NCBI GenBank assembly: GCA_030587475.2
Contig: JAUQYZ020000149.1
Span: 1-11,818, forward strand
Length of the DNA: 11,818 nt
Reading direction: 5' to 3'
Source of the DNA: Candidatus Sigynarchaeum calidifontis
GTDB lineage: Archaea > Asgardarchaeota > Lokiarchaeia > Sigyniarchaeales > Sigyniarchaeaceae
The position numbers were made by a program, and so were the translations under genes. The notes beneath the pieces were generated by a model, which searched no databases, was not told the origin of the DNA, and worked only from the letters and a program-made list of their open reading frames with translations. Every line of letters begins with the position of its first letter. Position 1 is the first letter of the stretch. Shown here one piece after another: positions 8,695-10,166 of this stretch.

Positions 8695-8722
8695 TATTCT
8701 CGCTGGAAATGTGGTCTGTGAG

Positions 8723-8732
8723 CATTTAAACG
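8723..8732 (-). promoter_or_regulatory. Putative TATA box of the smc-scpA-scpB operon
   Basis: TTTAAA at 8730-8725 on the minus strand, about 30 nt upstream of the smc ATG. This spacing fits an archaeal short-leader or leaderless transcript; no strong SD is present. Confidence 0.55.
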
Positions 8733-8755
8733 CATGACGGATTGGCTTTCGCTTG

Positions 8756-9142
8756 TCAGAAGATCTTCGAGCATTCCTCCATGACGAGCTTCCCCACCCG
8801 GGCGAATTCTGCCCACCATTCCTGCGACCGGTTTGATACCAAGATCAGGTCGAGGAAGTTCGTGTTAATACAATAGATTTCATCTTTCCGGGCCTTTACC
8901 TTCTCTTTCCAAATCTCTGACAGGATGGTCGTGGCCGGGATCTTCTTCTGTGCTGCTTTCTGGATATCGCCGCCTTCTTTTTGCACCTTGGTGACGTGCT
9001 GGAATTGGAGCTCCTCTGCCTTGTATTTCATGTCCTTGCATGACATGACGATTTCGAGAGGCTTGTCCTTTCCGAACTTGCAATTTCTTCGCCACGAGCA
9101 CGGTTGGCACCACTGCTCGAACGATATCGTGAATTCAGAAAG
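8756..9142 (-). CDS. Small hypothetical protein with an N-terminal C-x2-C-x5-C-x13-C putative metal (Zn or Fe-S) motif; start codon unresolved
   Basis: The track ORF starts at ATG 9046, but the frame is open upstream to a TAA at 9175-9173 and reads ...LSEFTISFEQWCQPCSWRRNCKFGKDKPLEIVMSCKDMKYK... There is no in-frame ATG/GTG/TTG in this extension. The 5' coordinate given (CTT at 9142) is approximate. Confidence 0.65.
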   Translation of the reverse strand, partial: LSEFTISFEQWCQPCSWRRNCKFGKDKPLEIVMSCKDMKYKAEELQFQHVTKVQKEGGDIQKAAQKKIPATTILSEIWKEKVKARKDEIYCINTNFLDLILVSNRSQEWWAEFARVGKLVMEECSKIF

Positions 9143-9509
9143 TCCAGAGAGAGCATAGGTGAGTTTTGGCGTTTATTTTCACCGATTTCACGCGAAAGTT
9201 GATGGCCTCGGAATGTCTTTCGGGAACGCTGGGCGCTCCCAGGCAACATCCCGCGCTATTTAACAATACCATTCGCGCGCCGATCGATATTAAACATTCC
9301 ACATGGCCTTCTTGCCGAGCTCGGGAATAGGGGAGCGTGTCGTGGGAGGATCTGGATGCAATGTTGTCCACCGGACACGAGACTATCGGGTGCCATTCAA
9401 TAGCCTCGGCCGCGCCGGTGCACGTGAGGCCCTCGATGCTGGTACATTTGGAGCGGCTTTCCCGCCCGCCATGCCTTGACATGATTGAATAGCGCGTTCG
9501 TCCCCCCAC

Positions 9510-9517
9510 TTATATAA
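9510..9517 (-). promoter_or_regulatory. Palindromic TATA box TTATATAA, probably driving leftward transcription
   Basis: Isolated AT island in a GC-rich intergenic region, back-to-back with the aIF1 promoter. It overlaps one arm of the inverted repeat AGCGCGTT (9491-9498) / AACGCGCT (9516-9523). Direction is inferred. Confidence 0.45.
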
Positions 9518-9549
9518 CGCGCTTGCGGAATGAGGTACGGCCGTGCCTT

Positions 9550-9568
9550 CGCAAAAAGGTATTTAAAG
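9550..9568 (+). promoter_or_regulatory. BRE plus TATA promoter for the aIF1 transcription unit
   Basis: CGCAAAAAGGTATTTAAAG: purine-rich BRE-like run followed by TTTAAA (9562-9567). Predicts a TSS near 9590 and therefore a ~150-nt leader before the aIF1 ATG at 9746. Confidence 0.65.
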
Positions 9569-9620
9569 TGATCTCACCATTGATCACCCGGAGCCTCGCT
9601 CCATACAACAGAAAAGTCAC

Positions 9621-9805
9621 GCAAGGCGAACCATGTCGACAAGCGAAAAATCGGTGTGTTGTACTCGTTCATTGCCGATCGAGCTTTGCGTGAGATTTTC
9701 ATCGATTTTTCCTTTCTAACGAAAAAAAACGAAGCAAGGCGCATCATGTCGTCAAGCAAAAAAGCGGTTTGTCCGGTATGCTCGCTGCCGCAAGAATTAT
9801 GTGTT
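9621..9805 (+). repeat. Degenerate direct repeat, 72-nt units at 9621-9692 and 9734-9805 (113-nt offset)
   Basis: Ungapped hand alignment: 48/72 nt identical, 33/39 over the first 39 nt. Confidence 0.85.
9633..9719 (+). CDS. 28-aa upstream ORF (MSTSEKSVCCTRSLPIELCVRFSSIFPF), a diverged copy of the aIF1 N-terminus; leader peptide or duplication remnant
   Basis: ATG 9633 to TAA 9717-9719. 13 of the first 20 residues are identical to aIF1 (MSSSKKAVCPVCSLPQELCV). Same upstream context, GCAAGGCG-N4-ATG. Confidence 0.5.
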   Translation: MSTSEKSVCCTRSLPIELCVRFSSIFPF

Positions 9806-10093
9806 TGCAAAGCCGTCAGCCAGGAAGAAAGCAAAATCAAGGTCAGGACCGACAAGCGGAAGTGGGGACGGCTCGTCACGCTCCTGGAATTCAGCGGCAT
9901 GGCCAACGTTAACCTCAACGACATCGCCCGCAAGCTCAAGACCAAGGCAGCTTGCGGCGGGACCATCGACGGGAACGTCATCGAGCTACAAGGCGACCAC
10001 ACGTTCAGCGTGCGGAACTGGCTCAAGGAAATGGGATTCGAGGATAGCAATATCCAAGTGACGAGAACCGTCCACACGGGCACCAAGCATTAG
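9746..10093 (+). CDS. sui1: Translation initiation factor 1 (aIF1 / SUI1 family), 115 aa
   Basis: Archaeal N-terminal CPVCSLPQELCVC motif and SUI1 core IKVRTDKRKWGRLVT...LKTKAACGGT...IELQGDH...LKEMGF. Start re-assigned from 9656 to ATG 9746. Confidence 0.95.
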   Translation: MSSSKKAVCPVCSLPQELCVCKAVSQEESKIKVRTDKRKWGRLVTLLEFSGMANVNLNDIARKLKTKAACGGTIDGNVIELQGDHTFSVRNWLKEMGFEDSNIQVTRTVHTGTKH

Positions 10094-10098
10094 TCACG

Positions 10099-10133
10099 TT
10101 TTTTTCCAAAACATTCATTCCCTTTTTTCCCTT
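10099..10133 (+). terminator. T-tract terminator candidate after aIF1
   Basis: TTTTTTT directly after the stop, then CCCTTTTTTCCCTTT; typical archaeal oligo-T termination signals between convergent genes. Confidence 0.5.
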
Positions 10134-10166
10134 TGCATCGGGGCCCGGATGTACGCTCGAATTGCG

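Follow-up and report, generated by a model that had tools for sequence, protein, structure and literature searches.

The window, by which we mean the whole stretch of 11,818 nt analysed here from Candidatus Sigynarchaeum calidifontis, carries the gene for the archaeal initiation factor aIF1 behind a leader that contains a partial copy of the gene's own start (Table 1). The protein belongs to the SUI1 family (58.9 bits against PF01253, whose cut-off is 25.5) and is the single aIF1 match in its genome. It clusters with proteins labelled Candidatus Sigynarchaeum and Lokiarchaeota, in keeping with an Asgard archaeon. All four zinc-knuckle cysteines are present (C9, C12, C19 and C21), with serine at a position where the published motif has glycine (PMC6237735). 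The predicted promoter motif, GGTATTTAAA, is common to nearly all loci of the genus; the TATA box occupies 9560-9567 and the conserved motif starts 75 nt 5' of the upstream ATG. Given this placement of the TATA box, the start site deduced from it and the lack of any TATA-like word between 9570 and 9750, the upstream open reading frame (uORF) is very probably transcribed, in agreement with an earlier sequence-only reading that had put it inside the leader. The neighbours of aIF1 in congeners are a divergent RagA-like GTPase gene (PF04670) on its upstream side and, past alba, an STT3 gene; neither is adjacent here (positions 8700-9550), and a search with the L039 query found no RagA orthologue in this 89% complete assembly. 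Here aIF1 adjoins an smc-scpA-like-scpB operon.

Table 1. Features of the aIF1 locus, in coordinates of the window.
Feature	Position	Strand	Remarks
BRE-like purine run and TATA box, predicted aIF1 promoter	9550-9567	+	TSS inferred near 9590
5'-terminal hairpin of the native leader, 5 bp	9590-9602	+	96.7% of cells paired in the RNAalifold consensus; compensatory changes absent
P1 5' arm, overlapping the Shine-Dalgarno-like site of the upstream AUG	9612-9627	+	core 9618-9627; inverted repeat I2; site weak as judged against the 16S 3' end and the genome SD consensus
uORF	9633-9719	+	ATG 9633, TAA ends 9719, 28 aa; translation predicted
Copy of the aIF1 N-terminus (uORF codons 1-20)	9633-9692		uORF codons 21-28 are spacer-derived
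3' arms of P2 and P1	9676-9698	+	P2 pairs with the upstream AUG region; P1 9683-9692, and past a 2-nt bulge to 9698
U-rich spacer containing the uORF stop	9693-9724	+	the one stop codon within the spacer falls in the uORF frame; several indels between lineages
Second copy of the ribosome-binding region, before the aIF1 AUG, without P1	9725-9745	+	direct repeat D1
aIF1 (SUI1) gene, 115 aa, four-Cys knuckle intact	9746-10093	+	Pfam PF01253, E 7e-16
U-tracts 3' of the aIF1 stop, likely archaeal terminator, convergent with alba	10099-10135	+	T7 and T6 runs; function inferred

Positions 9621-9692 and 9734-9805 are identical at 48 of 72 nt without a gap. By the same measure the 7,328 long ORFs of this genome average 29.8 (sd 2.2), placing the aIF1 repeat about 8 sd above background; five of these ORFs reach at least 48, i.e. 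four besides aIF1. The duplicated unit comprises the ribosome-binding flank and codons 1-20 of aIF1; the two ATGs are 113 nt apart and so lie in different frames. That the uORF copies the aIF1 start, with 13 of 20 residues identical, a different frame and a gap of 26 nt between its stop and the aIF1 ATG, had been seen from the sequence and is borne out, as are the counts given with it: seven of the 13 identical residues are encoded by synonymous codons (codons 8, 13, 14, 17, 18, 19 and 20), and the 28-residue peptide has three cysteines (Cys9, 10 and 19). Presence of the copy in six independent assemblies excludes an assembly artefact. The duplication is real, is found in several species, and is constrained at the nucleotide level.

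Six lineages carry the upstream copy (this genome, G000, and G001, L031, L039, L054 and L056), the orthologous uORFs of the other five being 33-34 aa long. It is missing in eight single-copy congeners of similar aIF1 identity, which makes it dispensable, and in four more distant outgroup loci. A covariance model built from the upstream domain picked up the pair of aIF1 copies in this genome and in G001 and no other site there; 119 further genomes of the order, searched with it, gave no hit. In two genomes of the same family (63% and 78% complete) no aIF1 match was found. The element is confined to part of one genus. The TATA motif of carriers stands 75-76 nt 5' of the upstream AUG; in single-copy L047, L049 and L053, which have the same leader, it lies 76 nt 5' of the aIF1 AUG itself. 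These matching distances indicate that the upstream copy holds the native start and that it is the working gene which has been displaced. With carriers or non-carriers taken as a clade, a tree of aIF1 plus alba gave AU p values of 0.41 and 0.46, which favours neither order of gain and loss. Either a tandem duplication or the insertion of a related allele may have produced the copy. Gene conversion between the copies finds no support, the upstream copies being as close or closer to one another than to their own coding copies.

Three single-copy congeners, L048, L055 and L057, have longer or different leaders (TATA distance about 122 nt in L048 and L057) with short stretches resembling codons 14-17 or the spacer, possibly remnants of a lost upstream copy. 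Unrelated AUG uORFs occur in the aIF1 leaders of two single-copy outgroups, one of 54 aa ending 64 nt before the start (L032:1269-1433) and one of 22 aa ending 2 nt before it (L033:1430-1498); they may be independent leader ORFs or chance.

Synonymous divergence among the six carrier lineages is 0.3-0.57, and between this genome and G001 the median pS is 0.49 (35 orthologues). Between the same two genomes the uORF copy differs at 13 of 60 nt, three synonymous and ten non-synonymous (pS 0.22, pN 0.23), far fewer than this median would give (binomial P 1e-5); since it changes more slowly than synonymous sites, the copy is constrained. Averaged over the six lineages, pS and pN are 0.32 and 0.146 in the uORF, 0.60 and 0.071 in aIF1 codons 2-20, and 0.44 and 0.038 in the aIF1 body. 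A codon model applied to the six lineages gives the uORF a dN/dS of 0.47-0.53 (CI about 0.3-1, with upper limits of 0.8-1), below 1 at borderline significance (p 0.04-0.09), and aIF1 a value of 0.02-0.10; the dS of the uORF is below that of aIF1, which points to constraint at the nucleotide level. Judged from these comparisons, the DNA is constrained and the peptide relaxed, the constraint appearing to act mainly on the RNA.

All nine bases of codons 17-19 are invariant in the six uORFs and variable in the coding copies. This bears on the synonymous differences, which had been read as a sign of selection on the peptide: at codons 17-20 it is the aIF1 copy that deviates, while the uORF keeps the codon common to the other uORFs, and the argument for the peptide fails. 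The copy is not, on the other hand, the simple pseudogenised duplication that the sequence-only reading had entertained as a doubt, for six lineages have kept AUG and frame and the copy evolves more slowly than synonymous sites. No stop appears among 37 substitutions (simulated P 0.02-0.04 for retention of AUG and frame, calculated post hoc on a star tree). The proposed check of uORF conservation and dN/dS in relatives shows AUG and open frame intact in six of six carriers, the copy lacking in eight congeners, and a dN/dS of about 0.5.

Most of the conservation is explained by an RNA helix that the sequence-only reading had missed. This helix, P1, pairs the ribosome-binding arm of the upstream AUG with codons 17-19 of the uORF; its predicted probability is 0.78-0.99 in five of the six upstream copies and 0.31 in that of L054, as against 0.00-0.05 in the six coding copies; single-copy genes range from 0 to 0.75. 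In two of the latter, L047 and L053, codons 21-23 offer the 3' arm an alternative partner, a competitor missing from the truncated copy. The core of the 5' arm is invariant in all six lineages, and change per site per lineage is 0.02-0.03 in the stem arms versus 0.15 elsewhere in the uORF. Helix cells are paired in 95% of cases, versus 33-44% when the helix is slid; fold z-scores run from -1.1 to -3.3 for upstream copies and from +1.8 to -1.2 for coding copies. Invariance at synonymous sites of the P1 arm also supports a conserved structure. Covariation is weak because most helix pairs never vary: one pair of the P1 extension shows three pair types and two compensatory changes, and overall covariation is not significant, 42 of 500 shuffles scoring as high. 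In the minimum-energy fold of this genome's own leader P1 forms and P2 is arranged differently. The 5'-terminal hairpin is also found in single-copy congeners, and Rfam gave no match for the leader at E up to 5. The conservation of the copy follows the helix predicted to sequester its ribosome-binding site, with one remainder: the consensus fold gives no partner to the A and U of the AUG or to the three bases that follow the P1 arm, and these bases are invariant all the same.

Computed on the full transcript, opening costs 12.6-19.4 kcal/mol at the upstream AUG and 6.5-10.3 kcal/mol at the aIF1 start. The upstream AUG, once proposed as a decoy start, is thus predicted to be the less accessible of the two, and a pure decoy is unsupported. 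Until the 3' arm of P1 is transcribed, however, it would be about as accessible as the main start, its cost then rising from about 8 to about 16 kcal/mol. The predicted accessibility of the aIF1 start is much the same as that in single-copy congeners, or with the upstream copy cut off, so that this start need not depend on the uORF. An anti-RBS switch operated by a freed P1 arm is not supported by constrained folding: forcing the upstream site open shifts access to the aIF1 start by only -0.6 to +1.5 kcal/mol.

The uORF stop lies 7-8 nt before aIF1 in four lineages (L002, L039, L054 and L056), 26 nt before it in this genome and 25 nt in the sister lineage L031; the shift in the latter two is probably one event. 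A stop located from -8 to +10 nt from the next start has been taken as predictive of termination-reinitiation, and in Haloferax reinitiation is about halved at 13-14 nt and lost at 22-23 nt (PMC10666635). The four lineages fall within the predictive distance, this genome and L031 outside it. In the four, a ribosome placed at the uORF stop cuts the computed cost of opening the aIF1 start from 6.5-9.7 to 0.1-3.7 kcal/mol, a drop due largely to overlap of the ribosome footprint with the aIF1 site; in this genome the cost changes from 9.7 to 8.6, only 1.1 kcal/mol. Coupling is probably weakened in this genome and its sister while the helix persists.

Starts elsewhere in the order differ. Of 28 relatives outside the family (L003-L030), 20 lack any in-frame ATG, GTG or TTG on the 5' side of the knuckle; six codons ahead of the first cysteine they have ATT (18) or ATC (2), preceded at a distance of 9 nt by an SD-like GTGA, the TGA of which closes the frame. 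Seven of the 28 have GTG or TTG and one has ATG, the codon used by the family of Sigynarchaeum. The 20 relatives are likely, on their sequences, to begin aIF1 at a non-AUG codon in the manner of infC. Since aIF1 discriminates against AUU in vitro (PMC4705826), these near-cognate starts make feedback by aIF1 at its own gene plausible across the order. The main start is AUG at all loci of the genus, and near-cognate control of the eIF1 or IF3 type does not apply there; the SD-like site of aIF1, with one mismatch and about 3 nt closer than the genome consensus, is only suggestive of poor context.

We tentatively favour, at rather less than even confidence, a reading in which the structured leader gates aIF1 synthesis through presumed translation of the uORF and its coupling to aIF1. 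Duplication of the start region would have split two jobs between the copies. By comparison and folding, the upstream copy, at the native position behind the promoter, has kept and locked the predicted helix that pairs the ribosome-binding site with codons 17-20, and the downstream copy has kept protein coding and lost the helix. By the computed costs the upstream AUG would be open only until about 60 nt of the uORF had been transcribed, and buried afterwards. A ribosome loading in that open interval may read the short ORF, stop beside the aIF1 start, melt the small hairpin and re-initiate; part of aIF1 synthesis would thus hang on initiation at a weak, structured site, and the sequence of the peptide itself would be of no importance. 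The gating reading is weakened by the gap in this genome, which exceeds the distance that abolished reinitiation in Haloferax. An extension is more speculative: aIF1 favours well-positioned mRNAs, so that more aIF1 could reduce upstream initiation, a negative feedback that might stand in for the AUU, AUC and UUG starts of sister families. Feedback by aIF1 through this element we regard as distinctly unlikely, and to the same degree a fuller version, in which this lineage, back at AUG after a near-cognate start, rebuilt the feedback by turning a duplicate of the gene's start region into a structured, time-limited uORF whose aIF1-sensitive initiation is coupled to aIF1 synthesis, an archaeal counterpart, soon after its birth, of uORF and context control in eIF5 and eIF1.

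The leader might instead be a static RNA element with an idle uORF, its locked 5' domain stabilising the mRNA or fixing the level of expression and its buried, rarely used AUG surviving because it lies inside the fold. The tracking of base pairing by conservation speaks for this, as do the high cost of opening the upstream AUG, the unconserved position of the uORF stop and the slight effect on aIF1 of forcing the upstream site open. It leaves without explanation the invariance of the unpaired AUG bases and of the three bases after the P1 arm, the freedom of codons 1-20 from stop or indel across carriers, and the mild excess of synonymous change outside the stems (14/34, P 0.04-0.10), and we hold it to be somewhat unlikely. 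Less probable still is a slowly decaying relic with no selected role, a stub left either by duplication of the start region or by recombination that brought in, after codon 20, a related aIF1 allele together with its leader, the apparent conservation then being that of a slowly evolving aIF1 leader as a whole. Indeed the 5' UTR (75-81%) and spacer (63-81%) are conserved about as well as the uORF (73-83%), eight congeners do without the copy, the spacer bears a weak likeness to the L055 and L057 leaders, and the peptide differs from its own aIF1 at 7 of 20 residues. Such stubs also arise elsewhere: two more genes of this genome bear N-terminal stubs ending beside their start, one of 57 aa (G000 C74:19270-19461; L071:271-462) that ends 18 nt before an aldehyde:ferredoxin oxidoreductase gene and is absent in G001, the other of 46 aa (G000 C177, upstream of 802, minus strand; L072) that overlaps the start of a 122-aa ORF by 4 nt. 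They point to a general process and weaken arguments from geometry alone; the aIF1 copy, unlike them, persists across six lineages. A relic is also hard to reconcile with divergence so far under that of synonymous sites, with the absence of gaps where flanking intergenic DNA has 3-9 alignment gaps per 80-100 nt in three of four pairs, and with stem arms nearly invariant at codons that vary in the coding copies; a neutral 113-nt direct repeat would, moreover, be expected to collapse.

Bacterial leader-peptide attenuators of the trpL type combine a short ORF with a leader helix that it overlaps and a U-rich tract behind it. The present leader has the same layout, and P1 with the U-rich spacer could make termination conditional, whether intrinsic or aCPSF1/FttA-dependent, with read-through once a ribosome covers the uORF. 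A strong helix followed by a U-rich tract is present in all six lineages (U 0.32-0.50), and FttA/aCPSF1 is described as mediating archaeal termination (PMC11616081). The U runs are short, however (2-5; none above 2 in L039), compared with the U7 and U6 that follow the aIF1 gene; a run of control codons and a conserved antiterminator are missing, the consensus fold holds no conserved alternative helix, Rfam offers neither an attenuator nor a riboswitch match, and the computed switch is negligible. We consider attenuation improbable. A Cys-rich leader peptide under selection and sensing zinc or cysteine, as suggested earlier, has little left to commend it beyond retention of Cys9 and Cys19 in six of six lineages and of Cys12 in five of six, and the borderline dN/dS. 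The CX2C..CxC knuckle described for aIF1 (PMC6237735) has Cys21 as its fourth ligand, a residue that lies past the end of the duplicated stretch and that no copy includes, and in this genome CxxC is broken by a change of Cys12 to Arg; the pN of the uORF is twofold that of the same codons of aIF1, Cys19 sits in the invariant helix, and neither the spacing of the cysteines nor the tails are conserved. A peptide sensor is very improbable indeed.

Among known systems, bacterial IF3 and the eukaryotic factors eIF1 and eIF5 are established cases of autoregulated start-fidelity factors. In the eIF5 mRNA, autoregulation works through inhibitory uORFs whose context is poor (Loughran et al. 2012, PMC3326321), and the present case shares with it a leader uORF in the gene of a start-stringency factor and a peptide whose sequence is beside the point. 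It differs in that the starts are prokaryotic and of SD type, the two AUGs share their flanks and are set apart by RNA structure, the uORF duplicates the start of the very gene that it precedes, and feedback is speculative. The poor-context AUG of eIF1 (Ivanov et al. 2010, as cited in PMC6237735) and the AUU start of bacterial infC (Butler et al. 1987, as cited in PMC4705826) likewise belong to genes for fidelity factors, and the apparent AUU or AUC starts of 20 of the 28 order relatives recall them; with AUG as the main start, that mechanism as such is not used here. Haloferax and E. coli couple the translation of neighbouring ORFs by termination-reinitiation (Huber et al. 2023, PMC10666635), and for bacteria uORF coupling and RBS occlusion are also on record (PMC13285730). 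As in Haloferax and E. coli, a short upstream ORF ends by the downstream start in four lineages; unlike there, the distance in this genome is past the measured working range and the uORF start is locked in a long helix. The leader is probably a variant of uORF or structured-leader control, probably weakened in this genome.

In the literature searched we found no description of aIF1 autoregulation in archaea, and no paper on initiation factors of Sigynarchaeota or on partial duplication as a source of uORFs. Congeners that have the copy, congeners that lack it and the sister families that use AUU, AUC or UUG form a natural series for testing self-limitation of aIF1, and the same series bears on how the start of a gene can give rise to a uORF; if the leader is merely structural, or a relic, it is a genus-level curiosity.

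Some minor observations concern annotation and the translation apparatus. Several public aIF1 gene calls begin at Met16 or Val24 and so lose the zinc knuckle, and four of the proteins (P0002, P0016, P0019 and P0023) are publicly named YciH, after the bacterial homologue. The 3' end of the 16S rRNA gene, with the spacer that follows, has a second, 66-nt copy 7.3 kb from the real one (G000 C10:116-181 and C10:7437-7502; 82% identical), and in this second copy the anti-SD is altered.
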